The notes below the pieces were generated by a model. It was not told where the DNA came from. It saw only the letters and a program-made list of their open reading frames with translations, and did no database searches. Shown here in pieces: positions 2,723 through 64,000 of a DNA stretch of 64,000 bases. How positions within the stretch are numbered: the stretch's first letter is position 1; each line of letters starts with the position of its first letter. The position numbers were made by a program, and so were the translations under genes. This stretch comes from Squalus acanthias. Taxonomy: Eukaryota. The stretch spans positions 138,508,001 to 138,572,000 of the forward strand of contig CM059426.1 of assembly GCA_030390025.1 (NCBI GenBank). Direction: 5' to 3'.

Positions 2723-5700
2723 TCATAGAGTCATAGAGTTATACAGCACAGAAAGAGGCCCTTCGGCCAGCGTGTCCGCGCCGGCCATCAAGCCCTGTCT
2801 ATTCTAATCCCATTTTCCAGCACTTGGTCCGTAGTCTTGTATGCTATGGCGTTTCAAGTGCTCATTTAAATGCTTCTTGAATGTTGTGAGGGTTCCTGCC
2901 TCTACCACCCTTTCAGGCAGTGAGTTCCAGATTCCAACCACCCTCTGGGTGAAAAAGTTTTTCCTCAAATCCCCTCTAAACCTCCTGCCCTTTATCTTGA
3001 AACTATGCCCCCTGGTTATTGACCCTCTACTAAGGGGAAAAGTTCCTTTCTATCTACCCTATCTATGCCCCTCATAATTTTGTACACCTCAATCAGGTCC
3101 CCCCTCAGCCTTCTCTGCTCTAAGGAAAACTACCCCAGCCTGTCCAGTCTCTCTTCATAGCTGAAGCGCTGCAGCCCAGGTAACATCCTGGTGAATCTCC
3201 TCTGCACCCTCTCCAATGCAATCACATCCTTCCTATAGTGTGGCGACCAGAACTGCACACAGTATTCCAGCTGTGGCCTAACTAGCGTTTTGTACAGCTC
3301 CATCATAACCTCCCTGCTCTTATATTCTACGCCTCGGCTAATGAAGGCAAGTATCCCATATGCCTTTTTAACCACCTTATCTACCTGTCCTGCTGCCTTC
3401 AGGGATCTATGTACATGCACACCAAGGTCCCTCTGATCCTCTGTCCTTCCTAGGATCCTACCATTCATTGTGTATTCCCTTGCCTTGTTAGTCCTCCCAA
3501 AATGCATCACCTCACACTTTTCAGGGTTAAATTCCATTTGCCACTGTTCTGCCCATCTGACCAACCCGTCTATATCGTCTTGTAGCCTGAGGCTTCCCTC
3601 CTCGCTATTTACCACTCCATCAATTTTCGTGTCATCTGCGAACTTACTGATCATACCTCCTACATTCATATCTAAATCATTAATGTACACTACAAACAGC
3701 AAGGAAACCAGCACCGATCCCTGCGGTACACCACTGGACACAGGCTTCCAGTCACAAAAACAACATTCGACCATCACCCTCTGCCTCCTGCCACTAAGCC
3801 AATTTTGGATCCAATGTGCCAAATTGCCCTGGATCCCATGGGCTCTTACCTTCTTGACCAGTCTCCCATGCGGGACTTTGTCAAAAGCCTTACTGAAGTC
3901 CATGTAGACTACATCAACTGCACTACCCTTATCCACACACCTAGTCACCCCCTCGAAAAATTCAATCAAATTGGTTAGACATGATCTCCCCCTGACAAAG
4001 CCATGCTGACTATCCTTGATTAATCCTTGCCTCTCCAAGTGGAGACTAATTCTGTCCCTCAGAATTTTTTCCAATAATTTCCCTACCACTGATGTTAGGC
4101 TCCTGCCTGTAATTCCCTGGTTTATCCCTACTACCCTTCTTGAATAATGGTACTACGTTAGCTGTCCTCCAGTCCTCTGGCACCTCCCCTGTGGCCAGAG
4201 AGGTTCTGAAAATTTGTGTCAGAGCCCCTGCAATCTCCTCCCTTGCCTCACACAGCAGCCTGGGATACATCTCGTCTGGGCCTGGGGATTTATCCACTTT
4301 TAAGCCCGCTAAAACCGCTAGTACCTCCTCCCTCTCAATGCTAATTTGTTCAAGTATATCACAATCCCCCTGCCTGATTTCTATGCCTACATCGTCCTTC
4401 TCTATAGTGAACACAGATGCAAAATATTCATTTAAAACCTCACCTACATCTTCCGGCTCTACACACAGATTGCCACTTTGGTCCCTAATGGGCCCTACTC
4501 TTTCCCTGGTAATCCTCTTGCCCTTAATATACTTATAAAACACCTTGGGATTTTCCTTTATTTTGCCCGCCAGTGTTTTTTCATGCCCCCTCTTCGCTCT
4601 CCTAATTTCTTTTTTAAGTACCCCCCTGCACTTTCTATACTCCTCTAGGGCTTCCACTGTTTTTAGTCCTTTGTATCTGCCAAAAGCCTCCCTTTTATTC
4701 CTAATCTATTCTTGTGTATCCCTTGACATCCAGGGTTCCCTGGACTTGTTGGTCTCACCCTTGACCTTTACGGGAACATGTTGGCACTGTACTCTCTCTA
4801 TTTCCTTTCTGAATTACTCCCACTGCTCTGATGAGGATTTTCCTACAAGTAGCTGATCCCAGTCCACTTTGGCCAGATCCTGCCTTATCATATGAAAATC
4901 GGCCTTCCCCCAATTTAGAACCTTTATTTCCGGTCCATCTTTGTCCTTTTCCATGACTACCTTAAATCTCACCGAATTATGGTCACTGTCACCAAAATGC
5001 TCTCCTACTGACACTTATACCACTTGCCTGGCTACATTCCCTAGAATTAGGTCCAGTACCGTGTATGAAAGGCTGATATTTAAAGATATTAAGTAGACGA
5101 GAATCATATATGTATAACCTCAATTATAGCCATTGACCAAATAATATTACCCATAATTACTCCTGGGTAACTAAAAAGCTAAGACTTGTTCAAAATGTAG
5201 CTGGACAGTCAAAAGCAGTTTTGACTAAGTTTTGATAACAAACAGCCACAGACTGCGAGTGAAGATTAAATCATTAAATAACATATTATAATGCTGTATA
5301 GAACTTAGAATTCGCTTAACAAAACTAATTGCAACAATATTTAAAGAATAATTAGTATAAGGACATAAAATGAAAGAGATCATGGAGATAAGGTATTTAT
5401 CTGGTCGATTAAAGTGAGATAGTCTGGATACCTCAAGACTAGTGAAGCAGCGCTGATATAGGCCCATGGTATAAAGGCCTTGTACCAGGGAAGCTAGAAA
5501 TGAAAGAGATAAAGTAAATTCCAATGGGGTGAAAAACTATAAACAAGATAACACTGAACATGGTAAAGTTGGTGGAAAAATACTGGAAAGGCGGGATGCT
5601 ACCTTAGTCTGAGTGACAATGGTATTTTGACCATTAGAACCAATTAAAAAAGGTGATTTTGTTAAAGACCATATATGGACACTGGCCAAACCAACTTTTG

Positions 5701-7372
5701 AAAAGGGTTAAAACCTCGATACTCAAAGAACAACTTCACACAGACGTACTGCGAAGACAAAGGAACAGACTTAAGACGATGTCATCTGTGTCCGAGAGGT
5801 CCAGAGACCAAGGGCTGCGAGCTACTCGTTAAAACTATCGCCTAATATTAAGTATATTATGCTGTATGCTTAATAAATCTTGATCTATTGCTCAAACATA
5901 CTGGCTGCTGCCTATTGGGGTCTTGTCCAAGAACTCAGAGATCATTAAGATCTTACAACCGCCCCCTCTCTTGTAGGACTTTCTACATGCTGGCTCAAAA
6001 AGCTCTCCTGGATGCACTTTAAGAATTCCGCACCCTCTAAGCCTTTCACACTCTGACTATCCCAGTTAATATTGGGGAAGTTGAAATCCCCTACTATTAT
6101 TACCCTATTATTTCTACACTTCTCTGAGATTTGCCTACATATCTGTTCCTCTATCTCCCCCTGACTGTTTGGGGGCCTATAGTACACTCCCAGCAAAGTG
6201 CTTGCCCCCTTTTTGTTTTTAAGTTCTACCCATATGGCCTCATTAGAGGAACCTGCTAAGATATTATCTCCCCTTACTGCAGTAATTGACTCCTTGATTA
6301 ATATTGCGACACCCCCTCCTCTTTTACACCCCCCTCTGTCTCGCCTGAAGATTCTATACCCCGGAATATTGAGCTGCCAGTCCTGCCCCTCCCTCAACCA
6401 TGTCTCTGTGATAGCAACAATATCATAATCCCATGTGTTCATCAACACCTTCAATTCATCTGCCTTACTCGCAAGACTCCTTGCATTAAAATAAATGCCA
6501 TCCAGCCTTGCCATACTCCCTTGTGCCGTTACATGTTTGCTCTGCCTTCCAGGCTGACTTGTTTTTTCCTCTATATTTGGCTGTGCATCACCCCCTACTA
6601 TAGCTCCACTCCGTCTCCCATCTCCCTGCCAAGTTAGTTTAAACCCCCCCCAACAGCACTAGCAAACCTCCCCGCAAGGATGTTGGTCCCGTTCCGGTGC
6701 AACCCGTCCGACTTGTACAGGTCCCACCTTCCCCAGAAACAGACCCAGTGATCCAGGAAACTAAAGCCCTCCCTCCTGCATCAACTCTTTAGCCACGCAT
6801 TCATCTGCTCTATCCTCCTATTCCTATACTCACTAGCACGTGGCACCAGGAGTAATCCAGAGATTACAACCTTTGAGGTCCTGCTTTTTAATCTGCTACC
6901 TAGCTCCCTAAATTCTTGTTGCAGGACCTCATCCCTCTTTCTACCTATGTCGTTGGTACCAATGTGAACCACGACCTCTGACTGTTCGCCCTCCCCCTTC
7001 AGAATGCCCTGCAGCCGCTCAGTGACATCCTTGACCCTGGCACCAGGGAGGCAACATACCATCCTGGAGTCACGTCTGCGGCCACAGAAACGCCTGTCTG
7101 CACCCCTCACTATTGAGTCTGCTACCACTATTGCCCTTCCACTCTTACTCCTCCCCCTTGTGCAGCTGAGCCACCCACAGTGCCGTGAACTTGGCTCTGG
7201 CTGCACTCCCCAGAGGAACCGTCACTTTCACCGTTTTCCAACACAGAAAAACGGTTGTTGAGTGACATGCACTCTGGGGCTTTCCTGACTACCTGCCTGG
7301 CCCCCTTCTTCTGACTGGTGGTCTCCCATTCCCTCTCTGACTGCACTTTCTTAAGCTGCGGGATGACCAGGC
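2723..7372 (-). mobile_element. CR1 LINE, near full length but frameshifted (SGNH esterase ORF1, APE endonuclease and RT ORF2), interrupted by a solo LTR
   Basis: ORF 6781..7206 (ADSIVRG...CCLPGARVKDV...HIGTND), ORF 5945..6514 (AITETWL, GDFNFP), ORF 3130..4089 (GVPQGSVL, FADD), and (tctatga)n-type 3' tail near 2723. Confidence 0.95.
5062..5957 (+). mobile_element. Solo LTR, 896 bp, inserted in the CR1 endonuclease region
   Basis: TGTATGA...TCTTACA termini, 4-bp TSD ACCG (5058-5061 and 5958-5961), AATAAA near 5872. CR1 sequence is contiguous once it is removed. Confidence 0.88.
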
Positions 7373-18120: not shown

Positions 18121-20345
18121 TTGGCCCAGAAACTGGAGTACTTACCGCCACCCGCTTGCACTGTTATCAGGGCAAAAAATGGCAGCTGCCACTCTAGCAC
18201 CCTTCTCTAGCGTAGGACTCAGCGGTCGCCATTTTGATGAGGTCCATAGCGCTGCCGATAGCAGCGCTGGCCCTGGCGATGTAAATGAAGATAGCGTGAC
18301 ATCAGTCGGCGTGCAATGCCGGCTTGATGCCACGTCTGCGAACTACGACCTTCGCGGTGAGTTCAGTGCTGGGTCCTAAGATCGCTCTGAAAAGTGAGCG
18401 TTCAGCAGACTGACAGATACTGTCAGCACTTCTTAAAGGGACACACACATCTTACAGGTAAGTTTGCATTTAAGCTTTTGGACTGGATTTTTTTAAAATT
18501 TTATTGAAGTACTGGTTTGGTGCAATACATGTTAAAAGGTTTTTAAGTGTGCAGGGAGTGCTGCTGGACGCCTGCAAGGCCTTGGATGGTAAAGGAAGAC
18601 CTCTGATAAGACAGAAAATGCTGGAAATACTCAACAAGTCAGGCAGCATCCGTGGAGAGAGAAACAGAGTTCACGTCTCAGATCGAGATGCTGAGTATTT
18701 CCAGCATTTTCTGCTTTTATTTCAAATTTACAGTATCTGCTCACAGAGGGAAGAGGAAGACGCAGTAGAGGAAGACGCAGAAGAGGAAGATGCAGAAGAG
18801 GAGGAAGCAGAAGGAAGGATACAACCCGCACTGCCCCTTTCTGGCCAGGATATCTGAGATGGAATCATCTGCCTGCGGTACCAGGGACCACAATCTCAAT
18901 TCCCCTTTCAACATTTGTCCCCCACCTTATCTTCCCTCTGTTACTGACCACACAGCATCCGTTTGGCCACAATACTGAAATAAAAGCCACCACAAAGCAA
19001 ACTTTCCAATCCAACTTTATACATCTATCCATCCAGTATGACATCAAGAAATCAACTCATCACCCTTATGCATTCTCTTAGTGACTGTCTTGTGTGTGCC
19101 TTTGACTATCCTACTGATGTCATGCAGTGCTACCCCAGTGGCTGCAGCATGGCTGGTGGAAGGCTGCTGAGTTTTAGTGGGGGACACTGCAAATGGCCTT
19201 GCTAGTCAACCTTGAGGAGCTGGTGGCTGGGAGTTTGAAATCAAGCGATGGTGTTTCTTCTTCTTCTTCTTCTTCTTCACCATCCTTTACTTCTTCTTGG
19301 TCAACCACTGGCTGGGCAGGCTGCATTTCTTGGGTGTGTGAAATGAGGAAGGCACAAGGGTGGAGTTGTAGTGAGGGGAGGGCGGAAAGCAAGAGGTGCA
19401 TGCGAGAAGGAGGATAATGTATGAGGATACCAACATCTTGTCTCCTTTCAGCCCTGCTGCTGGCCAAGGGCTCAGCCATGCCCCTGCCAAGAATGGCCAG
19501 CACCGTCTCCTCCAAGGGAGGTGAGGTGAAGCTAGGAATGGGAAGTGTGCCTCGTGTTTGGTACAGATTGTAGGTAGGTGAGTGATTGGGTGGTGGAGGG
19601 GGGAGCCGTGCATTGAGAAGTGTGTGAGGCTAGTGATGCAGTTGGTAGGAGACAGCTTTTGACGATGCATTCACTGACCATGACCAGTGGTCTGAGGTCA
19701 TGAAGATTCTTTGTGCACTGGAGCCAGGTCGTGGGGGTGACACTGCTGGTAGTGACGGCTTCGGTGATCTGGTCCCACATCCTTCTTTCTGGAGGGCCTC
19801 CTGGCCCCTGTGGGTAGTGGACCTCTCTTCCTGTGTTGACCCCCTGCACAAAGTTGGAGTGCTGCGTGCGAGACCCTGGGTGCCCCTTCCCTGGCTTGCT
19901 GATCCATTTGTGTTCGTGCTGAAGCACTTTCCCCATTTTTTTTAGGTGCAGAAGGAATTCAGCTATACAAGCTGAAGACTCCCATTTGGGAATTCTTTTT
20001 AATGTTATTTTTTTTTCAGAAGGCTGTTGAGCTGTAAGGACTAAAAACTCACTATTTTTACATAATTTTTTTTTCATTTAGAAGGCAGTTCACCTTTAAG
20101 AAATCGACACTACTTTCTGAAATGACAGTCTCGCATTCAGAGCTGGCTGTTCATGCTGCAATGACGCTACGGCCACGCTACACTGGGGCCTCCTGCTGGG
20201 ATGAACGCCACCAGGATGGCGTTGCACAGTGAGTTTAGCACTGGGCTAATGTTAATTAGTCCCCAGCGCCAATTTTTTGGTCCTGCCAGCGCCACCATTT
20301 TCAGCGGCCGTTAAAACCAGCAGGTTTTTACCGCTATCGAATTTT
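18121..20345 (-). mobile_element. Harbinger derivative: Myb/SANT remnant on minus, probable acidic transposase C-terminal remnant on plus
   Basis: ORF 19532..20077 contains MWDQITEAV...TTWLQCTKNLHDL. CR1 reads through (actaaagatat|agaggtcaaaatg) when the insert is removed. Confidence 0.72.
18612..18740. mobile_element. Palindromic repeat remnant, probably Penelope-derived (second family)
   Basis: Perfect 22-bp inverted arms cagaaaatgctggaaatactca (18612-18633) and 18692-18713. Degenerate relative at about 58065-58200. Confidence 0.55.
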
Positions 20346-23176: not shown

Positions 23177-23236
23177 CTGTGGCCCCACTGTTATTTATGA
23201 GGCTGCTCAGGATATATTCAGCTTTCAGAAGTTTAC
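23177..23236 (-). CDS. ALPK1: ALPK1 coding exon, 60 nt ((G)KLLKAEYILSSLINNSGAT)
   Basis: tgacag acceptor and GTTAGT donor, phase 1-1. Matches human KLLKAEYILSSLISNNGAT. Confidence 0.95.
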
Positions 23237-26262: not shown

Positions 26263-27144
26263 TAATAATAATGAATAATACTTCTTTTTATAGCATCTTG
26301 ATATATTGAAACATCCCAAAGCACTTCACACAATGAATTAATTTTGAAGTGCAGTGGCTGTTATAAAGGTAAACGTTCTTTGGTCTTGTCGTGCACCATA
26401 CCCTGGCTGAGAGAATGGACCAAGAAACTGTGCCCAAGCCTCTTACCAGTGTTGCTCTGTATCCAGCTACTAGGAGGTGTGAAAGTGCTCTGGTCTCTCA
26501 TTCCCTGTGACTTCCTATTTCTACAATGTTGCAGCTCTCAAAGGGTTAAGCCCTAAGAAGTTTAAAAAGGTAAGTGTAAGCCATGGCTCGCTGGTTGCAT
26601 TCTTGCATCTGTTGTGGATTCAAGTCCCACTCCAGAGACTGAGCACAAACTCTAGACTGACAGTCCGGCTGAATCTTGACAGGGACAGACTGTGTAGGCG
26701 GCAGGGCGGAGTTTCTGGCGGGAAACCTGGAAGTTCGGGTTTTCCCGCATGCAGTGGAATTTTGACACTACAGCGTGCGTAGTTTTGCTTTGACAGGTTC
26801 CCCACATGGAGGTCAGCCTGATTGACAGGCTTGGCTTCCAGTTGGATGGGAAGCACTCCAGAGGATACCGCAGCCGCAGGTAAGACGCCTGCTGCCAATG
26901 TTCCCTCTAATTTTTGTTTGTACTGAGCGGCCCACGAACTCCTCTGAGCCCAACTTTTTGGTCCATGGGAAAATTGTACAACAACAAAACAACAACAACA
27001 ACTTAGAGCATATATACAACAATGCAAGTAAATAAGGTTAATATTTATTCAACATTAATTACAGTTACATCATGATGGAATTTTCCCCGTCTGTATTTCT
27101 CTGTTTTCCAGTGATGGAAAATTCTGTCACGGTTGACAATCCAC

Positions 27145-29605
27145 CTCTCCTCTAACAGGTCACATTCTACCTCTCCTCACACGTCCCATTCTACCTCTCC
27201 TCACATCCCATTCTACCTCTCCTCACACGTCCCATTCTACCTCTCCTCACATCCCATTCTACCTCTCCTCACACATCCCATTCTACCTCTCCTCACACGT
27301 CCCATTCTACCTCTCCTCTAACAGGTCACATTCTTCCTCTCCTCACACATCCCATTCTACCTCTCCTCACACATCCCATTCTACCTCTCCACTCACTGTC
27401 CCATTCTACCTCTCCTCACATCCCATTCTACCTCTCCTCACACATCCCATTCTACCTCTCCTCACACATCCCATTCTACCTCTCCTCACATCCCATTCTA
27501 CCTCTCCTCACACATCCCATTCTACCTCTCCTCACTGTCCCATTCTACCTCTCCTCACACATCCTATTCTACCTCTCCTCACACATCCCATTCTACCTCT
27601 CCTCACTGTCCCATTCTACTTCTCCTCACACATCCCATTCTACCTCTCCTCACACATCCCATTCTACCTCTCCTCACACGTCCCATTCTACCTCTCCTCA
27701 CACGTCCCATTCTACCTCTCCTCACACACCCCATTCTACCTCTCCTCACACATCCCATTCTACCTCTCCTCACACATCCCATTCTACCTTTCCTCACTGT
27801 CCCATTCTACTTCTCCTCACACATCCCATTCTACCTCTCCTCACACATCCCATTCTACCTCTCCTCACTGTTCCATTCTACCTCTCCTCACTGTCCCATT
27901 CTACCTCTCCTCACTGTCCCATTCTACCTCTCCTCACACGTCCCATTCTACCTCTCCTCACACACCCCATTCTACCTCTCCTCACACACCCCATTCTACC
28001 TCTCCTCACACGTCCCATTCTACCTCTCCTCACACATCCCATTCTACCTCTCCTCACACGTCCCATTCTACCTCTCCTCTCACTGTCCCATTCTACCTCT
28101 CCTCTCACTTCCCATTCTACCTCTCCTCACACATCCCATTCTACCTCTCCTCACACATCCCATTCTACCTCTCCTCACACATCCCATTCTACCTCTCCTC
28201 ACACATCCCATTCTACCTCTCCTCACACATCCCATTCTACCTCTCCTCTCACTGTCCCATTCTACCTCTCCTCACACATCCCATTCTACCTCTCCTCACA
28301 CATCCCATTCTACCTCTCCTCTCACTGTCCCATTCTACCTCTCCTCTCACATCCCATTCTACCTCTCCTCACACACATCCCATTCTACCTCTCCTCACAC
28401 ATCCCATTCCACCTCTACTCACACATCCCATTCTACCTCTCCTCTCACATCCCATTCTACCTCTCCTCTCACATCCCATTCTACCTCTCCTCTCACTGTC
28501 CCTTTCTACCTCTCCTCACACATCCCATTCTACCTCTCCTCACACATCCCATTCTACCTCTCCTCACACATCCCATTCCACCTCTCCTCACACGTCCCAT
28601 TCCACCTCTCCTCTCACATCCCATTCTACCTCTCCTCTCACTGTCCCATTCTACCTCTCCTCTCACACCCCATTCTACCTCTCCTCTCACATCCCATTCT
28701 ACCTCTCCTCTCACATCCCATTCTACCTCTCCTCTCACATATCATTCTACCTCTCCTCACACATCCCATTCTACCTCTCCTCACACATCCCATTCTACCT
28801 CTCTTCTCACTGTCCCATTCTACCTCTCCTCACACATCCCATTCTACCTCTCCTCACACATCCCATTCTACCTCTCCTCACACTGGACCCATTCTACCTC
28901 TCCTCACACATCCCATTCTACCTCTCCACTCACTGTCCCATTCTACCTCTCCTCACACTGGACCCATTCTACCTCTCCTCACACATCCCATTCTACCTCT
29001 CCTCACACATCCCATTCTACCTCTCCACTCACACATCCCATTCTACCTCTCCTCACACATCTCATTCTACCTCTCCTCTCACACATCCCATTCTACCTCT
29101 CCTCACACATCCCATTCCACCTCTCCTCTCACATCTCATTCTACCTCTCCTCACACATCCCATTCTACCTCTCCTCACACATCTCATTCTATCTCTCCTC
29201 ACACATCCCATTCTACCTCTCCTCACACATCTCATTCTATCTCTCCTCACACATCCCATTCTACCTCTCCTCACACGTCCCATTCTACCTCTCCTCTCAC
29301 TGTCCCATTCTACCTCTCCACTCACTGTCCCATTCTACCTCTCCGCTCACTGGTCCCATTCTACCTCTCCTCACACATCTCATTCTACCTCTCATCACAC
29401 ATCCCATTCTACCTCTCCTCACACATCCCATTCTACCTCTCCTCACACATCCCATTCTACCTCTCCACTCACTGTCCCATTCTACCTCTCCGCTCACTGG
29501 TCTCATTCTACCTCTATTCACACATCCCATTCTACCTCTCCTCACACATCCCATTCTACCTCTCTGCTCACTGGTCCCATTCTACCTCTACTCACACATC
29601 TCACA
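27145..29605. repeat. Minisatellite of about 2.45 kb, 22-26-bp units with consensus cccattctacctctcctcacacat
   Basis: Roughly 100 directly visible tandem units with variant spacers. Confidence 0.97.
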
Positions 29606-30649
29606 CCTGGTCTGTTAGCCCCTCTTTCCCAACACAAGAGCTCACACTTTCAGGAGAGTAGATGAAATGCGAAAGAGCTGGGAGGATACACGCACCTTGA
29701 AAGTCTGGGCTTAGATCATAAACAACCTTAAAAATCCATTCATCTTGCCAAACAGTGAAATGAAACTCACATAATCTGGTCTCTCATCCATTATCCATTA
29801 ACCTAGACAACTTCAATTAACCTGCGGTTGCCAGGTGGTATATGTGGCTCAGTCAATGCTAAAGGTATTGGCCATGCTTCACATAAATGATCAATAACCC
29901 AATCTGCATCATAAACTTGCCCGTCAGAAAGCATTAGGTGCTCATTGAGAATGAGACTAAATCCATTTATCAACTTCACCCCAGATTATGTTTATCTGGC
30001 CAGGATGGGCTGTGCCCACTGGTTTTGTTACCTTTAGTTGTTATGGGCCTTTCTGGGCAATTCAGCTCAAGCTTGAGTCCTGGGGCATTGAGAGCTGCTG
30101 AAAGGGGAGCATTCCCAAGTCTCGCTCTAACCCAGGGCTGTCAACCAGATGTTCCGCGGGCCCGATCATCAGGGGCTGATTGGGAACTTAAAACGGCCCT
30201 GGAAAATATTCTGAAAGTGGCCCATGTCACCCATCCAATAGTAGTCTTATAACCTCATTTTCAGTAACCCTAATCCTACTTGCTCAGTTATTGTTATGGT
30301 CATTTGCAGACAAATTACAAAGAACTGACGATTTTATAGTAGTTTTATGAAATGTATTTGTAAATAGTGCTGACTGTACAATTGCATGCACTGCTTATTT
30401 ACAAAGCAACTAAAACATTAAACAAAAATAGCACCATACACATACACCAAAGTGAAAATCAGTATGTATGACATTATCTGAAAATAATAACAATACAATT
30501 GTCAGGTTATTGCAGATACAGCTCCTTGCACTATGAACTTTTCAATGATACACTATCAATGATTGCATCAGGGTCTATATGATGTAAAATGTTGTAACAG
30601 ATGAAATCATTGTTTTAAACAAAGATGGGTGCATCCGACTGTACAATAC

Positions 30650-30955
30650 TAACCCTCTGAGATATCTGTGCTCCTGCAACTCTGGCCTCTTGCGCAACCC
30701 CGATTTTAATCGCTCCACCACTGGTGGCTGTGCCTTCAGCTGCCTAGGCCCTTAAGCTCTGGGATTCCCTCCCTAAACCTCTCCGCATCTCTACCTCCTT
30801 TAAGATGCTCCTTAAGCCCTAACTCTTTGACCAAGCTCTGCTCTGATGTCTCCTTATGTGGCTCGGTGTCAAATTGTGTTTGGTAACGCTCCTGTGAAGC
30901 GCCCTGGGACATTTTACTATGTTGAAGGCGCTATATAAATACAACTTGTTGTTGT
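30650..30955 (+). mobile_element. L2 LINE 3' end
   Basis: gtgaagcgccctgggacatttt...ggcgctatataaatac followed by ttgttgttg. Similar to 57110-57395. Confidence 0.78.
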
Positions 30956-31184
30956 AGGCACTGTTGTATTGTAGGCAAACTACACTTCAAAAGTAATCAA
31001 CAAATTTTCACCATTCAGCACAGAAGCAAACCTTAGAATTGATCGCTGTTCAGGGCTGGCCTAACAAAAAAAGATGACACCTGCCCTACAGTCACACAGC
31101 AGACGGTTGGTTACCTGCACTGGTTCTGACTTCAGGGACTAGGCCTCGGTCGCATTCAATGCCATTAACTCGAGGCAAGCGGTC

Positions 31185-31300
31185 GCCTGTCGCTAGGAGA
31201 CGAGTTTTATGAGTGCCGGAAGTGCGTATCGCGGAGGGGGTCCGGATCCTGGCCCCACCCCTGGCTGTCAGTGTGTGAGGGAGAGGCGGGCGGGGCAGTG
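31185..31300. promoter_or_regulatory. CpG-rich promoter-like segment inside the hAT cargo
   Basis: ETS/GABP motif CCGGAAGTG (31216-31224), X-box-like GTCGCTAGGAGAC (31189-31201), GC box near 31285-31296, local CpG enrichment. Confidence 0.5.
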
Positions 31301-31333
31301 AGTCTGCTTCTACTAACGGATGGCTTGTTTATA

Positions 31334-31569
31334 GTGGACAAAATTGAGAGGTCGCACAACACCAGGTTATAGTCCAACAGTTTTATTTGAAATCACAAGC
31401 TTTCGGAGTTATCACTCCTTCCTCAGGTGAAGTAAATTCACCTGAGGAAGGAGTGATAACTCCGAAAGCTTGTGATTTCAAATAAAACTGTTGGACTATA
31501 ACCTGGTGTTGTGCGACCTCTCAATTTTGTCCACCCCAGTCCAACACCGGCATCTCCGCATCATGACCA
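31334..31569 (+). mobile_element. Penelope-like palindromic insertion with hammerhead ribozyme motif
   Basis: Perfect 98-bp inverted arms (31334-31431 and 31437-31534), 14-bp TSD cttgtttatagtgg (31324-31337 and 31570-31583). Confidence 0.82.
31438..31475 (+). ncRNA. Minimal type I hammerhead ribozyme (identical copy on the minus strand in the left arm)
   Basis: TCAC-CTGAGGA-A-GGAG(tgataa)CTCC-GAAA-GCTT-GTGA: conserved core, stem II, palindromic stem III, stem I. Confidence 0.75.
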
Positions 31570-31723
31570 CTTGTTTATAGTGGCCCAGTCCCGCACTTGG
31601 GCAAAGAGTGGCTGCTGAGTGTGCAGCAGGATCTCAGCACCGGGTAGGAGAGAAGCGGGAGACACGGCAGGCTGTGTGCGGGAGAATCGGGCCCAGGGTT
31701 AGAATCAGGGCCTGGGACTCTCC

Positions 31724-31786
31724 TTCCAGACCCTTGACGGGACTGGACATGTAGTAATCAGCAGTGACAATCCTCGCTGCAAACAT
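31724..31786 (-). pseudogene. REV3L: Captured fragment of the REV3L (DNA polymerase zeta catalytic subunit) first coding exon
   Basis: MFAARIVTADYYMSSPVKGLE versus recalled vertebrate REV3L N-terminus MFSVRIVTADYYMASPLQGLD. Similarity stops after codon 21 and no further REV3L exons were seen. Confidence 0.85.
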
Positions 31787-33484
31787 ACTGACCCGATCAT
31801 AATGTTGTATTTTAAAAGGAGATGGGGGAAGAAGGAAATAAAAACACCAATACACACTTGCCCATCCACTCCCCTCCCCCCCGCCAAAAAAAATTAAATG
31901 CTAACTGTCTACGTAGTGAATATTAGTGAGGTGTCTTTGCTGGTCAGGCTGAGCTGACGGTGTTATTTGATACAGATGATGATGAGGAGGCGGTGGCTGT
32001 GGGCCCGTGCAATGCCTGTACCCATGTTGCTCTCTCCCTGCCCCTCCTGCTGTAACTGCCTCCAGCCGCCTCTCTCACACACATTACACCAGTTAGCGCC
32101 CACCCCACTCTCCCTAAATCACCGCCTCACCACTAAACGTCGCTCTTAATACGGCCACTATATATTGTTGTTTTGGTTTTTATAAAGACACTCCGATTCT
32201 TTCCCCCCTCTCGCTCAGAGCCCCACCCCCTCACTCACTTTTGCCGGCTCCACTATTACTAACAGTCACTAAGGGGTGAAGCGTTTGCTCGCTGCTCCTC
32301 CATTCGCAGGCTGAGCTGCACTTTTTCCCACTCTCTTTGGCAGCTGGTTTTTGATCTCCGCCCCTCCTCCCCCCTTCCCCCACCCACCCCCCCCCCCACC
32401 CCCCATGCTCCAGCTCACTGTTGTGTGCGGCCTGTGTATTTCAGTGCGCGGGACCTTACAGATTGCTGCGCGGCCGCGGGAACACTGTCTGCTGCTACTA
32501 GTCGGAGCGTGGGGCGAGGATGTCCAATTCCCGACCCCGGGGGAGGTCCGATCCCCGACCCCGGGAGAGGTCCGATCCCCGACCCTGGGGTCCAATCCCT
32601 GACCCAGAGTGGGTGGATGTATGGGGGGGATCTGATTGGGGGGAAACTTGGGGGTCAGGGGTGAAGCCCTTACCTTCTCCCTGAAGCTGTCCTCGCCTCA
32701 CTTCAGCTGCCGGGTTTCCTGAGGCCTGGGAAACCCGGCCGGTCAGGGTTAAACCTGCAAAGCAGGTTAAATCAGAGGCTTCCAGCCTCATGAAAATATT
32801 TAATTGATCAACCTGCTGCCCACCCCTTGTCCCAACTCCATTAAACCCGCAAGTGGGCAGGTTGCAGGTGGGTTAGGGTCGGGTTTGAGATTTTTAAAGT
32901 CTTAACATTTCACCCGACCCCAACCCATCCTTTTTTGGGGGTTAAGATACAGCCTTCTAGTACTGATGGGAGTGCTGCACTGTTGGAGGTGCCGTCTTTT
33001 GGATGAGAAGTTAAACCGAGGCCCCGTCTGCCCTCTCAGGTGGACGTAAAAGATCCCATGGCGCTATTTCGAAGAAGAGCGGGGGAGTTATCCCTGGTGT
33101 CCTGGCCAATATTCATCCCTCAACCAACACATTATCACATTGCTGTTTGTGGGAGCTTGCTGTGTGCAAATTGGCTGCATCATTTCCTACATTACAACAG
33201 TGACTACACTTCAAAAGTACTTAATTGGGTGTAAAGAATTTTAGGACATCCCTTGGTCATGAAAGGCACTATATAAATGCAATCTTTCTTTCTTTTATTA
33301 TCCATGAACAGGTAAATCTACCCAAGTCATAAGCAAAGGTGCAAAATAAAATTCCTGTGGAGTGAAATCACACTGTATAATATTAGTATATGAACACTAA
33401 ACCTGTTTGTGTGAAATTCATTAGTCCACTATTTTAATGGAGATAATTTGGATTTTTTTAAATGACTGAATACCTCTGTTAAAA

Positions 33485-34695: not shown

Positions 34696-34894
34696 CTGAA
34701 TTTACAGAGACTCGGGCCTGGCGAACAACCACCTGTGGCGCGATTGGTATTTCAAGGCGACGCTTGTGCAGGCCCTTGGCAATCTGTAGAAGTTTGCTGG
34801 ATGCATCGACCCAGTATAGAAACCTGTCAATCAAAAAGACTGTGGCAGCTGCAGAAGCATAGTCACCAACCGAGACGGAGGCTTTCAGAAAGAC
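34696..34894 (-). CDS. ALPK1: ALPK1 coding exon, 199 nt ([66 protein letters not shown])
   Basis: Lies inside ORF 34643..34972(-). ttttctctccacag acceptor and GTGAC donor, phase 0-1. Matches human VFLVDRFLY...PIAPQVVIRQARISVNSG. Confidence 0.96.
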
Positions 34895-35463: not shown

Positions 35464-35476
35464 TGTGTATGAATTT

Positions 35477-35699
35477 ACAAAAGTGAGAAGTCGCACAACA
35501 CCAGGTTAAAGTCCAACAGCTTTATTTGAAATCACAAGCTTTCGGAGTGCTGCTCCTTCGTCAGGCTGCTCTTTCTTCACCTGACGAAGGAGCAGCACTC
35601 CGAAAGCTTGTGATTTCAAATAAAGCTGTTGGACTATAACCTGGTGTTGTGCGACTTCTCACTTTTGTCCACCCCAGTCCAACACCGGCATCTCCGCAT
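35477..35699 (+). mobile_element. Second Penelope-like palindromic insertion with hammerhead motif
   Basis: 89-bp inverted arms (35477-35565 and 35580-35668, one mismatch), 12-bp TSD tatgaatttaca (35468-35479 and 35700-35711), same 3' extension as the 31334 copy. Confidence 0.82.
35577..35613 (+). ncRNA. Minimal type I hammerhead ribozyme
   Basis: TCAC-CTGACGA-A-GGAG(cagca)CTCC-GAAA-GCTT-GTGA. Confidence 0.75.
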
Positions 35700-36325
35700 T
35701 ATGAATTTACAGACATAGGTCAACAACCAGTTTACACTTTGGTCCTGTTTTCAGTGGTGTTTGGATTATCTGGGCTGTGAATTATTATTCTGACAGAGTC
35801 TCAGAAGAACAGTGGACTGCTCAATAAACAGCAGTGGTGGCAACGTCCAAAATGAGACCTACCGAACCAACAGGTGTTGATTGCTAGTTGGATTCTTTTT
35901 TAAGTACACTTAGGATGCACCTTCAGCCAAGTCCAGCAGGAGGATGCGAGGGGCAGAGCAGAGGCATGACAAGGGCAGGGCAGGTCTATGGATGATGTTT
36001 GCATTTCAGGCAATGACCTTAACAATTGTAATGACTATTTCTGATCACCAGACATGTGAGAGCAAAAATTGACTTCTGTTTAATAATCAGGCTTTTGCTG
36101 TCCAGTTCACCTTGTCAAAATGACCATCCATTCCAGTGAAAAGCTGGACAGTTGATAACCCTGGCTTTTTGCTGTTTCAGTGCTGTTTTTGTGCAAATCG
36201 CACCAGACAATATAAATTTTAAATGAAAATAGGAGAGCTTTTTTCATTCAGTGCCTGACTGTACAGGTGCTGTACTTTGCAGAATTTTTACAATTATAAG
36301 ATAGAGTAATATTATTATTGCTAGT

Positions 36326-44284: not shown

Positions 44285-46015
44285 GGGGGTCAGCGGGTAC
44301 GTTTGGTGGCAGGTCGGGTGGGAAAATGTTTTTTTCCCCCAGCGGATCGGGACCCCGCTGTGAACCCGCCGCCATGCGCCCTTTCCCAATGTCGGGTCTG
44401 TCAGCGCTGAGCAGACCTGAAACGCTGCGGCGGGGGACCCAATTCAGGTAATTATGACCTTGTTTCGAGACCATTAAGAATACATTTGAGCTCACCTTTT
44501 GATTTTACGGGCTCGCCCACTGGGTCCTTGCTGCTCGGGGTTCACGTCTGTTAATCTGAGGCAGGAGTTCAGTGGCCATTGAATCAGCTGTTGAATTGAC
44601 AGCTTCAAATGTAAAGTAAAAGCTCCCACCTTACAGAGATATCTTCCCTCAGCCACAAGCTGTTCCTCACTGCATTTCCACAACAGATTCACCATGCTTT
44701 ACACAAGTCTCCATCCAGTCTGACCTCATTACCTCTCTCACCATTGACAGATCGCTTCTGTCAGCTCTACTTCACTTGCCATCTATTCCATCGGCATGGG
44801 TGCCCTTTATACTCTCTCACCTTGGTCCTCAGAATCGGACCACGATCAGCCCCAACACCAGCAGCACCAGGCACACCAGCAACACCAACAACAACACCAA
44901 CCTTCTCCACAATCACCTGATGCTGCACAGGACAGAAGGCATCAGCACCCGACCACATTGCTGCCTGTGATGCCAGGGATGGCCTCACCATGGCCAGATT
45001 TACTTCACTTGACGCGGTACACCCTGGCTGCCACATGATGCGTCAGGTTGGCACCACCCCACACCAACACCATAAAGCATCCCTACAATGTCCAAGCCAT
45101 TCCTCTCACACTCATGACCAATGAGGGGGGTACCGTTATGTCTCACCATTCACTGCAACTCACTAAGCCACTTCCAAAGGTGCCCACAAATCTGTCCAAG
45201 AATGCAAAGTGTTGAAAATAAAGGTTTCAATGTTTGACAGCACATTAACAGAAACTTTTCATGAACATTGGATAAAACACCCAAGTGCCTTCCCTTGTGT
45301 GTTGTTAGTTGGTATGATTGCACTAGGATGAGGGTGAGTGTGAGGGGTGGCTAGTAAGATGGGGATGTGATAATATAGATAGAGAGAGAGGGATAGGTGG
45401 AGGTCCAAGGTAAGTTGGTGTGAGTAAGGATGTGCAGGAGTAGGGTAGAGAAGGCAGCGTGATGGGGATGTGATGAGAGGCTCAGCAGGATGAGGTTGAG
45501 CGATCTACTAAGATCATTGAAGAGTTTTCTCCACTGCATCCAGGTTTTCCTGACCACATCCCTGCTTGTGCCCTCCTGTACAATGTGCAACCAGGCTGCA
45601 CTGATCTCCTGGGGAGGTCTCTTCCGTCCATGGGAAGGGTAGAGGACCTCCCTGCGTGCTGTGACTCCCTCCATAAGCATATGGAGGGAGTCATGGGAGA
45701 GCCTGGGTGCAGACTTGTGCTTTTGTGTAGTCATTGTCAGTGTTTGCAGCACCTCAGTGCTGTAGAACACTGACAGCACAAATGTCAAAATAAAGTTGGC
45801 CATGGTCCCTTTAAGGAAACCGGCTGATGACGCATCATCAAATGATGTCGCCAGACCCGGTTCCTCTAATTGGCCGGGAAACGCATTGGGCGGGCTTAAC
45901 AAGCCCCATTGAGGGAAATTCATTTTACAGAGCGGGATGGAGCTAGCAGCAGGGTAGGGTCCCGCACTGACGTCGCCCGCCATGGACCCACCGAGGTCAG
46001 CAAAATCGCGGTCAT
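44285..46015 (-). mobile_element. Internally deleted Harbinger element with Myb/SANT-like ORF, relative of 15525-17017 in opposite orientation
   Basis: ORF 45351..45983 (PRLSHDSLHMLMEGV...AWLHIVQ...KTWMQWRKLFNDL). Shares the LSPWSSESD(D/H)DQP segment with 16378-16470. Confidence 0.78.
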
Positions 46016-46304
46016 CATGTTTATAAAATACAGTTTTTATTTGTCAGTTGGCACAAGATTATAGATAAAAGTTTGATGAACTGCAGATGTTAGCAGATTT
46101 TTGGGTACCTTATTTTGTGCTATCTTGCTGTGCATAATATGGTTGCCATATTTGTCTAGAAAACAATAAGATATTGCAATTCAAAGTAAGTGTATTGGAG
46201 ATCTTTTACTGGTGTTTAAACAGTTTCTAAAATAAATAATTTTTTCAAAAAGGTGACTGTTAAAATTGGCCTTTATTTTACATTAGCAAACTTGGTTAGA
46301 CAGT

Positions 46305-48269: not shown

Positions 48270-50185
48270 ACTACAGAAAGCCTAGACAGTTTAGAAAGTG
48301 CAGGGGTGAAATTAGAAAGGAAGGTAGGAAAGCAAAGAGAGGGCATGAAAAAATATTGGCAAGTAAAATCAAGGAAAACCCAAAGATGTTTTATAAATAC
48401 ATGAAGAGCAAGAGAATAACTAAGGAAAGATTAGGGCCTATTAGAGACCAAAAAGGTAACTTGTGTGTGGAGACGGAAGACATGGGTATGGTTCTTAATG
48501 AATACTTTGCATGTCTTCACAAAAGAGAGGGATGATGCAGACATTGTAGTTAAGGAGGAGGAGTGTGAAATATTAGATAAGATAAACATAGTGAAAACGG
48601 AAGTATTAAGGGGTTTGAAAGTAGATAAATCGCCAGGCCCGGATGAAATGTGTCCCAGGCTGTTAAGAGAAGCAAGGGAGGAAATAGCAGACCATCATTT
48701 TCAATCCTCTCTGGCTACAGGTGTAGTGCCAGAGGACTGGAGGACTGCTAACGTTGTACCATTGCTTAAAAAGGGAGAAAGGGATAGACCGAGTAATTAC
48801 AGGCCAGTCAGCCTAACCTCGGTGGTGGGCAAATTATTGGAAAAAATTCTGAGTGACAGTATAAACTGTCATTTAGAGAGGCACGGATTAATCAAGGACA
48901 GGCAGTATGGATTTGTTAAGGGAAGGTCGTGTCTGACTAACCTGATTGAATTTTTTGAGTAGGTAAATAGGAGCGTTGACGAGGGTAGTGCATTTGTTGT
49001 AGTCTACATGGATTTTAGCAAGGCTTTTGACAAGGTCCCACATAGCAGACTGGTCAGAAAAGTAAAAACCCATGGCATCCAATGGAAAGTGGCAAGTTGG
49101 ATCCAAAATCGGCTCAGTGGCAGAAATCAAAGAGTAATGGCCGACTATATTTTTGTGACTGGAAGGCTGTTTCCAGTGGGGTTACGCAGGGCTCAGTACT
49201 AGTTCCCTGCTTTTTGTGGGATATATCAATGATTTAGATTTCAATGTAGGAGGCATGATTAAGAAGTTTTCAGATGATACAAACATTGGCCGTGAGGTTG
49301 ACAGTGATGAAGAAAGCTGTAGACTGCAGGAAGATATCAATGGACTGGTCAGGTGAGCAGAAAAGTGGCAAATGGAATTCAATCCGGAGAAGTGTGAGGT
49401 AATACATTTGGGAGGGCTAACAAGGCAAGGGAATACACAATAAATGGTAGGATACTGAGAAGTGTAGAGGAACAGAGGGACATTGGAGTGCATGTCCACA
49501 GATCGCTGAAGGTAGCAGGACAAGTAGATAAAGTGGTTAAGAAGGCATACGAGATACTTTCCTTTATTAGTCAAGGCATAGAATATAAGAGTAAGGAGGT
49601 TATGCTTGAACTGTATAAAACCCTAGTTAGGCCTCAGCTAGAGTACTGCGTACAGTTCTGGTCACCACATTACAGGAAAGATGTGATTGCACTAGAGAGG
49701 GTACAGAGGAGATTTACGAGGATGTTGCCAGGACTGAAGAATTTTAGCTGTGAGGAACGATTGGATGGGCTGGGGTTGTTTTCTTTGGAACAGAGGAGGC
49801 TGAGGGGAGACTTGATTGAGGTGTTTAAAATTATGAGGGGCCTAGATAGAGTGGATAGGAAGGGGCTATTTCCCCTAGCAGAGAGGTCAATAACCAGGGG
49901 GCATAGATTTAAAGTAATTGGTAGAAGGATGAGAGAGGAGTTGAGGAGAACTTTTTTCACCCAGAGGGTGGTGGGGGTCTGGAACTCACTGTCTGAGAGG
50001 GTGGTAGAGGCAGAAACTCTCATCACATTTAAAAAGTACTTGGATATGCACTTGAAGTGCTGTAATGTACAAGGCTACGGACCAAGAGCTGGAAAGTGAG
50101 ATTAGGCTGGAGAGCTCTTTTTCGGCTGGCACGGACATGATGGGCTGAATGGCCTCCTTCTGTGCCGTAAATTTCTATGATCTAT
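48270..50185 (+). mobile_element. CR1 LINE ORF2, 5'-truncated
   Basis: ORFs 48260..48535, 48465..48962 and 49488..50099, with tttctatgatctat tail. Confidence 0.93.
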
Positions 50186-50934
50186 GGGGGAAAAATTAGG
50201 TCGCGCCCCATTTGGGGCGCAAATATCGTCTGGACGCAAATATTAGCGCCTGGCGCTAATTATCGCCACTGACTGGAAACTTCACTTTTACCGCCCCGGG
50301 AGGTGAGTGGAGCGCTAAATCAGGCGCTGCACACCTGTCTTAAGGCGCAAAGGCCGAGCAGTGAGGCGCTAACTCAGCGCGCGAGCGCAGCGCAGCTGCT
50401 GCCAGTTAGCGAGGGAACACAGACACACTGGCGCCGGCCAGTTCTTAAAGCAGGGGGGGGGGGGGGGCAACTGTTAGGATCAGTAGGCAAAACTACCTCA
50501 CAAAGCGTTGAGTCAATGCAGAAGTCTCTCTTTCTCTCTCTCCGAATCTCTCTCTCTCTCTCTCAGAACGAGTGGTGCAAAAATGTCAACCACAGAAAAA
50601 GACAGGAAGAGGCCCCCTTTAAATAGCGCCCCCCCCAGCCCCACAGCGATTGATAGCGTTCCAGTCTTCCGGTCGTTGGATGCGCCAGGCGGTAAGGCAG
50701 GGGGCGCCACTCAATTTCCGCTCCGGGGCGCCACAAGGGCGTTGCACCATGGAATGACGTCACAATCTGCGCGCGCAGGTGGTCGCAGCGGTAAAGTTTA
50801 GCGCCGCCGCACAATCTCTAGTTAAGTTCCCGAGCGGCGCAAACATCGCTGCGCCCGGGCGTTAGCGGCTTTGCGCCCCATTAGCGCCCTCTTAAGGCGC
50901 TAACGGGAGGCGCAACCAACTGAATTTTTACCCC
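50186..50934. mobile_element. CpG-rich non-autonomous Harbinger-type element inserted in the CR1 tail
   Basis: gggggaaaaatt...aatttttacccc TIRs and 3-bp TSD TAT. Confidence 0.8.
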
Positions 50935-51963
50935 TATGTATCTATCTTAATTCTGAAAGGCCTGTGCGATCCCTTTGCTTCACACAGTGACCAGAGATGG
51001 TTCCAGTTGCGGTTTGACAGGGACGGCCCGTAGGAAACATTGCTGAATATCAGGGAACTCGCAAAGCCATACCCTCAAATGCAAGTGGGTTTTATCCATT
51101 CTCTCAGCCTTCTTCCATTTATTATCACTCCCCGAACAAAGGATTGAATGCGAGTGACTTCACCAACAAAAGGGCTTTGAATCTGGAGGAAAAGTAGCCC
51201 TCAAAGAGGGTGAAAAAATCCAAGTGGCTCTATTATTTGCACTTACACTAATTAGACATTTTTCCCGTCAACTATTCATGGCTGTAGTGAAGACAAACTT
51301 ACTGAATTACTTTCTAAAGTGTTTGCAAAAGTTTACATCTGTTTGTGTCTCTGTGAACTAAAATAAGCACTTCAGCAGCATTGTGGAAAAATCGAAGAAA
51401 GTTAGTATTGTTTGTAGTATTGTGGAATCGTGAAGAGAGGGATACATTAATGAAAGCCTTCTCAGGAAGCATTACCATTTCAAACACAGCGTCCCTCCAA
51501 ATTATGAAAGAGAAATGAGTCCTTAACTTTAAGGAAAGCTTTAAAATAGCAAAACCCTGATTAGTTACCAAAAAGGAGCAGAAGCCAGGAGCAGAGGAAT
51601 GTTAGTGGGGAGACTTGCTGCAGAGAGACTTGTAAACCAGTATCATTTAATCTGTTGCACTAATGTTCGGAATTCTGGAAGCGGGCATTGTCCTTTGTTT
51701 TCTACTCCCTTCCTGATTTCACTTCCGACATCAACACTCATTTCTCATGGACCCATCTGTGGATTCAGTAGTGGTTTACTATGTATGATTTAGCTTAGTT
51801 TTATACTCCTGCCCACTTTCTCCTGAATCTCTTCTCTGCAATTTAGTATTTAAGGATTTTATATCTAAGGGAGTGTTATTGGCTTGGGACAAGAGCATAG
51901 TGAGGCAAGAAATCAGCACAAATCTGAATTTGTGAAGTTCAGTATATTTATTTCTGGGATATT

Positions 51964-60434: not shown

Positions 60435-60589
60435 GGGGGTGGAATTTCCACGGAGGTTCTCCCGATTGCCTGCCGTAACTTTGGCTGAAGAGCAGTGGAA
60501 ATCCCGGAAGAGCAGTAATTTTCCCAGGGTTTCCACAGCCCTTCTGCCGAAGTGGAAGAACAGGAGAACCTCCACGGAAATTCAACCCT
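60435..60589. mobile_element. Palindromic MITE
   Basis: gaatttccacggaggttctcc...ggagaacctccacggaaattc. Confidence 0.7.
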
Positions 60590-61089
60590 TAGTGTCAAAA
60601 ATGTGATCGACTGGATTAAGGCTGCTCCAAGTCATTTCATGCAGGAGCCTTACAAACCAGAGAGAGGACACTTTCAAAACTATCACTCTGAAGTTGCTTT
60701 TATGTTATGCGAGACCATGCTGGCACTGACCATTGCGAAAGATCCAGCTAAAAAAAAAAGGGCAGGTCTTTTCAGCAGCCAGCCAGAGTTAATCTCTACA
60801 GGTTTACCTCGGAGCTGCAGTCAGTTGCTCGAGAACTGTATGCTAGGGAGCGTCTTCATAAAACAATTTATTGATCAATAAAATTAACATTTTCACAGTA
60901 TTCTATGTAAAGACAGTTGTTGAACGCTGATCACTTTCAGAGGCTGTAATGCCTGCTGGTGAACCTCCTTCACTGTTGTTAGGAATGATTGCATGAGTTA
61001 CTAAAGTGATATTGGGTGATTTTTAAAACAGATTTATATTTGCCGAAGAATTTGATGGCACAAGATAGCGGAGAAGTGGTTAGAAAAAT

Positions 61090-63586: not shown

Positions 63587-64000
63587 TATGTTCTGAAGCA
63601 GTTGATTTTTTTATTTGGATGTCAGCCAGAATTCAGCAAGTATACCTTATTAGTTAAAACATATAAATCAGTGTTTGGACACTTGCTTTTACCTTGTGAC
63701 TAAGTTAATCCACTCATGCGGTGCTCATCAATAACATCCACCTACCTACTCATTACTGCTTTGCTTTGCTTTATGCACCAACCCCTCGTGCTAATGAATA
63801 AGGATGGATTAACAAAGCTAAATTCTGGCTGATTCCAAGCTAAGCTTCTTTCTTTTTTTCAAACTTTGAGTACTGAATGACTTCTATAGTTTTTAAAACA
63901 TGAACGCAAGGAGGCGGTTGAAAAAAGCCGCAAGACTGATCCCTTCTGTCAGAGGACTGAGTTATGAGGAGTGCTCCGAGAAACTGGGATTTTCAGCCTT

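Follow-up and report, generated by a model that had tools for sequence, protein, structure and literature searches.

An orphan REV3L-like 5′ fragment joined to an apparently opposite-facing promoter-like piece in an ALPK1 intron of Squalus acanthias

Duplications mediated by eccDNA have been described as permuted, with a donor order A-B reappearing as B-A (Takahashi and Innan 2020, PMC7188851), and small DNA circles are reported to be enriched in 5′ UTRs and CpG islands (PMC6511871). Penelope-like elements have been characterised by an inverted-repeat structure with a 30–40 bp extension at one end (PMC8557442). Human REV3L comprises 3,130 residues, and the initiator ATG of the mouse gene lies in exon 1 (PMC8561639); our literature search returned no publication on the length of REV3L exon 1, an upstream ATG or a head-to-head partner. 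Here we analysed 64,000 nucleotides of the Squalus acanthias genome (contig CM059426.1, positions 138,508,001 to 138,572,000; hereafter the window), in which an earlier note had pointed to the 5′ end of REV3L lying within ALPK1. No report of a REV3L piece inside ALPK1 was found in the literature, supplements and subscription papers lying outside the search. The features discussed below are collected in Table 1.

Table 1. Coordinates of the inserted unit, its subdivisions and its surroundings, as positions in the window
Feature	Position	Strand	Remarks
Next ALPK1 coding exon	23177..23236	-	In-frame join with 34696 donor
Old repeat remnants bounding the unit downstream	30715..31000	.	Self-comparison
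Downstream piece d2	31050..31323	+	~270 bp, CpG peak; lower boundary approximate
Palindromic insert, 232 bp	31338..31569	.	98-nt perfect inverted arms plus 35-bp extension at one end
14-bp target-site duplication, first copy	31570..31583	.	Exact second copy 31324-31337
Downstream piece d1	31584..31723	+	140 bp, 64% GC, closes REV3 frame at TGA 31636-31634
First 21 codons, REV3L-like frame	31724..31786	-	Pfam REV3_N positions 1-18
Presumed REV3L promoter / 5′ region	31787..32517	-	731 bp, no other copy in window
Repeat X	32518..32956	-	Related to element ~13315-12190; marks upstream breakpoint
Interspersed repeat, cut at 32959	32959..33301	.	Comparison with sibling copies
ALPK1 coding exon upstream of the fragment	34696..34894	-	~residues 89-155; phase 1 end, GT donor

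TBLASTN searches with ALPK1 proteins revealed that the window is part of ALPK1 on the minus strand, with six intact coding exons that follow one another at about 63076, 34894, 23236, 12042, 9443 and 2164, bearing GT donors and AG acceptors. The exon at 34894–34696 matched human ALPK1 in the PDB (5z2c_A, E 5.6e-22) as well as named shark and ray ALPK1 proteins, with 92–100% agreement to shark ALPK1. Over the last five exons, the window is identical to the sawshark protein at 165 of 170 residues, to four other sharks at 161–163, to elephant shark at 146 and to alligator at 128, and none of the compared proteins is fully identical to it. The REV3L-like fragment is housed in the intron 34695–23237 (11,459 bp), both of whose bordering exons join in frame; judging from these intact exons, ALPK1 splicing presumably passes over the whole inserted unit. 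The same intron holds a 2.4-kb tandem array at 27143–29600, with a 24-bp unit, about 102 copies and 90% matches. Isoform X2 of ALPK1 in sawshark (P0001) and sawfish (P0006) carries nearly the same 19-residue alternative N-terminus, joined to exon 34894, which points to a conserved alternative first exon in elasmobranch ALPK1. This N-terminus found no match within the window (best 7/19), and the exon may lie upstream of position 64000.

Several other elements populate the window. Debris of a Harbinger-type transposase occupies 3–743 on the minus strand (DDE_Tnp_4, E 7.5e-11), and frames near 19535–20077 and 45351–46043 presumably represent the Myb-like partner protein of a Harbinger-type element, the former frame having no Pfam match. 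On the minus strand, 3133–7221 is taken up by a decayed LINE of CR1 type that is nearly complete and includes pieces of an esterase (GDSL/OSK), an endonuclease and a reverse transcriptase. The window's longest CpG-rich stretch (50051–51050, o/e up to 0.98) appears transposon-derived, and a 120-codon open frame of protein-like look at 60519–60881 (plus strand) has no Pfam match. No structured RNA family of Rfam matched the window.

The minus-strand ATG at 31786 opens MFAARIVTADYYMSSPVKGLE, followed by 29 unrelated codons and the TGA at 31636–31634 (codon 51), so that the start and the 21 codons first proposed are confirmed by the reading frame. The sole Pfam family for this peptide was REV3_N (PF24065), residues 1–18 aligning with model positions 1–18 of 50 at E 8.1e-4 and 20 bits, under the gathering score of 29.9; the match stayed at 1–18 for query peptides of 20 to 30 codons. 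Among 140 control peptides drawn at random from the 868 ATG-started open 21-codon peptides of the window, none matched Pfam at E ≤ 1e-3, and the one match at E ≤ 0.1 was a true reverse-transcriptase scrap inside a LINE. Since about 0.7 chance matches (868 × 8e-4) are expected in theory, the Pfam value is not decisive by itself. The exact start at the Met and at model position 1, the empirical control and the fit to what we take to be the vertebrate REV3L N-terminus together make chance resemblance unlikely, and they support the identification with REV3L made in the earlier note. The similarity thus runs from the initiator Met; neither a complete REV3_N domain at or above the gathering score nor any further REV3L exon accompanied it in the window.

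No continuation of REV3_N after codon 21 was detected in any frame, frameshifted ones included. Apart from the fragment itself, REV3 and polymerase-B families were absent from all 97 frames of 20 or more codons around the unit, and REV3 and polymerase families were absent from 100 minus-strand frames of at least 55 codons over 1–30300, a scan that left out the tandem array (26900–29700) and in which shorter exons would be missed. The fragment therefore has no further REV3 exon among the frames scanned downstream, and it appears to be an orphan within the window. Its description as an orphan 5′ piece co-directional with ALPK1 is borne out by the minus-strand exons at 34894 and 23236 that flank it, although the human map positions invoked for it (6q21 for REV3L, 4q25 for ALPK1) are not directly applicable, the genome being that of a shark. 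PDB sequence searches with the 50- and 21-codon peptides gave nothing relevant (one chance antibody match, E 1.1). Protein searches at 89–2000 and 27–88 residues gave no match, full-length REV3L being longer than the searched range. A representative protein library returned 7 proteins, none matching at the N-terminus, and Atlas searches returned unnamed or phage clusters only; a full-text literature search with an eight-residue stretch of the peptide found no paper.

The unit carrying the fragment extends over about 31050–32520 and is larger than the interval first given for it, 31584–32400, which missed both ends. In self-comparison, 31567–32586 and 30957–31333 are single-copy within the window. 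At the upstream edge, one end of repeat X is present, and its similarity stops near 32535 in a 24-bp tandem array; we take its relative at ~13315–12190 to be MITE-like and of Harbinger type. The missing part of repeat X was not found downstream of the unit, where scores stayed within those of shuffles. The neighbouring repeat at 32959–33301, presumably a shark SINE type, breaks off at 32959, and the continuation present in sibling copies was not found in 29600–32958. A breakpoint near 32520 with loss of target DNA fits both the truncated repeat X and the cut repeat beside it. The remnants at the downstream edge are presumably a LINE/SINE tail. Adjoining the LINE tail at the unit's lower edge is a short SINE-like scrap with an internal inverted piece (30953–31000), which may belong to that tail or be the scar of a repair.

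Compositionally, the unit is uneven. The upstream block (31787–32517) has 54% GC and a CpG o/e of 0.58, against window averages of 45% and 0.36, and the highest CpG ratio of the unit is reached at 31130–31323 within d2 (61% GC, o/e 0.85). The flanks, GC-rich and promoter-like in the earlier description, are only moderately island-like, and a 200-bp CpG-island filter also lets through some 30 stretches elsewhere in the window. On the minus strand, the upstream block is G-rich over 32419–32020 and contains a C-rich 100 bp at 32019–31920 (skew −0.42). It also contains six ATGs, the nearest to the start lying out of frame at 31800, and a donor-like site at 32238 (minus strand, 8/9).

Beyond codon 21 the character of the DNA changes. 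Piece d1 is C-rich on the minus strand (G-rich on the plus strand) and has no REV3 similarity in any frame. Piece d2 contains what we take to be an ETS-type site at 31216–31223, of which the window has one further example, and, at 31189–31197, an RFX-like half site; the two motifs, picked after inspection from 11 motif families scanned, were reached by 78/5000 and 33/5000 shuffles, respectively, and both together by 2/5000. Minus-strand counts are 220 G and 113 C in the upstream block versus 59 G and 98 C in d1 and d2 (Fisher p 3.5e-9), and CpGs number 22 in 229 bp at the two ends of the unit versus 30 in 913 bp in its middle (p 2.4e-4), with segment limits for both tests set after looking. 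In d2, no donor candidate on the plus strand reaches 7 of 9.

Behind CpG-type start sites, G generally predominates on the sense strand. Combined with the observed skew, this general rule suggests a plus-facing downstream half, which in its composition and motifs resembles another promoter core with a 5′ gene end, oriented opposite to both REV3L and ALPK1. The earlier account of the unit remains right about the REV3L start; it overlooked this opposite-facing promoter-like half and the Penelope-like insert described below. If the lower end of d2 is placed before the upstream block, the CpG peaks are predicted to merge and the G-rich sense strands to diverge, which is the profile of a two-way promoter. 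The 5′ ends of two genes patched together would give the same skew and CpG profile. No plus-strand gene fed by d2 was found, the 102 frames of 55 or more codons over 33000–64000 yielding reverse-transcriptase matches only.

Two internal likenesses were evaluated. A 40-nt inverted likeness between 31260–31299 and 32092–32055 beats 300/300 shuffles, but 6 of 820 real control windows score equally and the sequence is simple; as a sign of a fold-back origin of d2 from the upstream block, the likeness is probably due to chance. A 20-nt direct likeness between 32506 and 31320, considered as a decayed target duplication, was reached by 35/300 shuffles and was discarded.

The palindromic insert that separates d1 from d2 is younger than the DNA it splits. 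A second copy, about 89% identical, lies at ~35473–35705, and both copies have near-perfect arms and a 12–14 bp target duplication of their own. Arms are more alike within one copy than between copies, indicating that they were made at insertion or homogenised. With inverted repeats and an extension at one end within the 30–40 bp range, the insert, itself non-coding, is by structure Penelope-like.

Taken together, the unit is probably, if by a modest balance, a dead, rearranged, non-processed pseudogene fragment copied at the DNA level. Under this reading, a stretch of promoter-type DNA of about 1.2 kb that contains the REV3L start would have been copied from elsewhere and pasted into the ALPK1 intron during break repair, and the remainder of the repeat at the upstream junction would have been lost in that event. 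After codon 21, the copy would switch to a second promoter or 5′ gene end facing the other way; a Penelope-like element later inserted into the unit. A REV3L source is presumed for the upstream 731 bp and is possible for d1 and d2. This window-unique DNA of 731 bp before the ATG begins mid-repeat, with the rest of that repeat missing. Homology ends inside the first domain, REV3_N, and the break at codon 21 presumably falls inside exon 1, about halfway through its coding part. The coding part of mouse REV3L exon 1 is presumably about 46 codons.

Within this DNA-level reading, several routes can be distinguished. A tentative one starts from a two-way REV3L promoter region, from which a small DNA circle would have been cut; having closed at codon 21, the circle would have opened again within the promoter and entered the intron with its parts permuted. 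Among single-source accounts, the permuted circle is the simplest. A permuted unit with an opened promoter core would be expected to have dense CpG at both ends together with a flip in skew. A patchwork of two loci is possible but ranks slightly below the circle, and a straight copy that has lost an internal stretch reaching into intron 1 is unlikely. Vertebrate genomes hold many such duplication scars. A dead fragment would be of little importance: it could at best mark a lineage, and it might mislead gene annotation or assays of the REV3L promoter in the shark. If the permuted order is true, the unit would neatly illustrate how a DNA circle of promoter size can reintegrate in the germline, a process so far argued mostly from larger duplications.

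A DNA-level copy was also preferred over a retrocopy in the earlier note. That preference stands as the likeliest outcome, although the argument from a missing exon 2 and poly(A) does not hold: homology ends within the first domain, in what we take to be exon 1, so exon 2 would be absent under either route, and any tail would have been lost along with the 3′ part, its absence being expected in both cases. The opposing view sees in the unit what is left of the 5′ end of a retrocopy, or of an unspliced RNA that was retro-copied, after deletion or replacement of the 3′ part. It gains from the fact that mRNA sequence accounts for all that has been identified as REV3L (21 codons). Retrocopies are reported as common in cartilaginous fishes (14,081; bioRxiv 10.64898/2026.06.26.734816), and Penelope-like elements are described as able to retrotranspose intron-containing host genes (PMC8557442). 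Against it, a very long mRNA would have to have been copied in full before a second event took place, d1 and d2 are left unexplained, and neither the A-rich tail nor the flanking target-site duplication of a processed pseudogene was found around the unit, the only minus-strand AATAAA within 1 kb downstream belonging to the palindromic insert. In retrocopies it is usually the 5′ end that is missing and the 3′ end that survives. The lack of retro hallmarks agrees with a DNA-level copy, weakly because the 3′ part is missing, and six ATGs in 731 bp plus the donor-like site at 32238 fit genomic DNA better than one mature UTR, again weakly; we regard the retro remnant as unlikely. A little less improbable, though still doubtful, is the passenger of a DNA transposon of Helitron or Pack-TIR type, comprising the REV3L promoter, part of exon 1 and the 5′ end of a second gene, with other copies in the genome. 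The captures described for bat Helitrons favour promoters, 5′ UTRs and first exons and often come from several genes in succession (PMC4224331). Single-copy Pack-TIRs are described as arising by gap filling inside a TIR element (PMC8277862), and the unique DNA here begins inside repeat X; the Harbinger-type transposase debris in the window (DDE_Tnp_4, E 7.5e-11) points the same way. Searches for the expected ends were nevertheless unfavourable: 55 candidate pairs of inverted ends with target duplication compare with 32–73 in five control regions, so terminal inverted repeats around the unit were rejected, and the best pairs around it are SINE scraps or lack a duplication. The absence of the remainder of repeat X downstream argues against a Pack-TIR, whose two flanking element parts, terminal repeats and target duplication were not found together here. 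The end-like stretch at 31053 is at noise level, many unrelated sites sharing its score of 22, and no hairpin stands at the usual distance before a Helitron CTRR end (judged by eye, the ends of the unit being imprecise). The unit occurs once in the 64 kb, which says little about the genome.

Two further accounts would remove the insertion altogether, and we consider both highly improbable. An assembly chimera could have placed REV3L promoter reads in the ALPK1 intron, and a perfect 98-nt inverted repeat in the unit and a 2.4-kb tandem array 1.5 kb away are indeed troublesome for short-read assemblies; yet two misjoins 1.5 kb apart would be required that left the order and frame of the ALPK1 exons undisturbed on either side, whereas the window has no N and the insert has a clean 14-bp duplication. 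Alternatively, the peptide could resemble REV3L by chance, the region being a GC-rich patch native to the ALPK1 locus or one of its internal promoters. The sub-gathering Pfam score, the roughly 0.7 such matches expected among 868 peptides and the failure of every sequence and Atlas search to retrieve a REV3L protein are in keeping with this. It is opposed by the control (0/140 at E ≤ 1e-3, one true repeat match at E ≤ 0.1) and by the anchoring at the Met and model position 1, while the failed searches can be attributed to a 2000-residue limit, against 3,130 residues in human REV3L, or to insufficient power for 21 residues.

Whatever the origin of the unit, it could serve as an active, retained internal promoter yielding a short ALPK1 isoform (minus strand) or antisense RNA (plus strand), which we judge very unlikely. 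CpG is less eroded at the two peaks, at about 9–10 per 100 bp versus about 1–1.5 in neighbouring unique intron DNA, promoter motifs are intact, and the ATG and frame are unbroken over 21 codons; the minus-strand donor-like sites at 32238 (8/9) and 31114 (7/9) score equal to ALPK1's own donors. However, a young dead copy would look alike, CpG retention fitting youth as well as activity, and donor-like 9-mers of such quality are expected by chance in 0.7–1.5 kb. In a transcript joining the 23236 exon, the first in-frame Met would be at about residue 245, with more than half of the 446-residue N-terminal domain lost. Neither a start there nor the REV3 peptide occurs in any of 12 named cartilaginous-fish ALPK1 proteins whose starts were inspected, and a retroelement insertion within the unit has been tolerated. 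The suggestion that a housekeeping promoter had been given to ALPK1 finds no support, since the unit lies behind the exon ending near residue 155 and the frame stops at codon 51, yielding at most 50 residues, while the 21-residue peptide appears in no named ALPK1 protein (best 7/21 identities, 112 proteins). Least probable of all is the combined case, in which a DNA circle, derived from a two-way REV3L promoter and inserted in permuted order, would now act as a promoter within ALPK1, producing an ALPK1 isoform without most of the ligand-sensing N-terminal domain and/or antisense RNA across the upstream exons. If true, it would represent a germline-fixed microDNA that rewired an innate immune sensor, and transcription into ALPK1 would have changed the domain content of a bacterial-sugar sensor.

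Comparison with described systems helps to place the DNA-level copy that we favour. With REV3L and its REV3_N domain (PF24065), the unit shares positions 1–18, starting at the Met; positions 19–50 and all later domains are absent, the score is below the curated cut-off, and the unit is not a polymerase gene. Foreign DNA beginning inside a TIR-type repeat recalls the single-copy Pack-TIRs as described by Tan et al. (2021, PMC8277862), whereas the repeat's other half, the second end and the target duplication were not found at the shark unit. In the bat Helitron captures, as exemplified in the published account by HelibatN3 with NUBPL (PMC4224331), a portion of the first coding exon has likewise travelled with its promoter and 5′ UTR, and a joining of two genes' 5′ ends is possibly a further likeness; the shark unit is without recognised Helitron ends and without a second copy in the window.

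The CpG peaks at both ends of the unit and the skew flip at its internal junction are what a two-way promoter would give if permuted in the manner of eccDNA-mediated duplications. The published human cases are defined by donor comparison, whereas the unit is about 1.2 kb of putative promoter DNA in a shark, judged from its composition. Like non-processed pseudogene fragments and insertion-type interspersed duplications, the unit comprises a gene piece with upstream DNA, out of its locus and with a broken frame, in the intron of another gene. It differs from non-processed pseudogene fragments in retaining only 21 codons and in being joined to an opposite-facing promoter-like piece.
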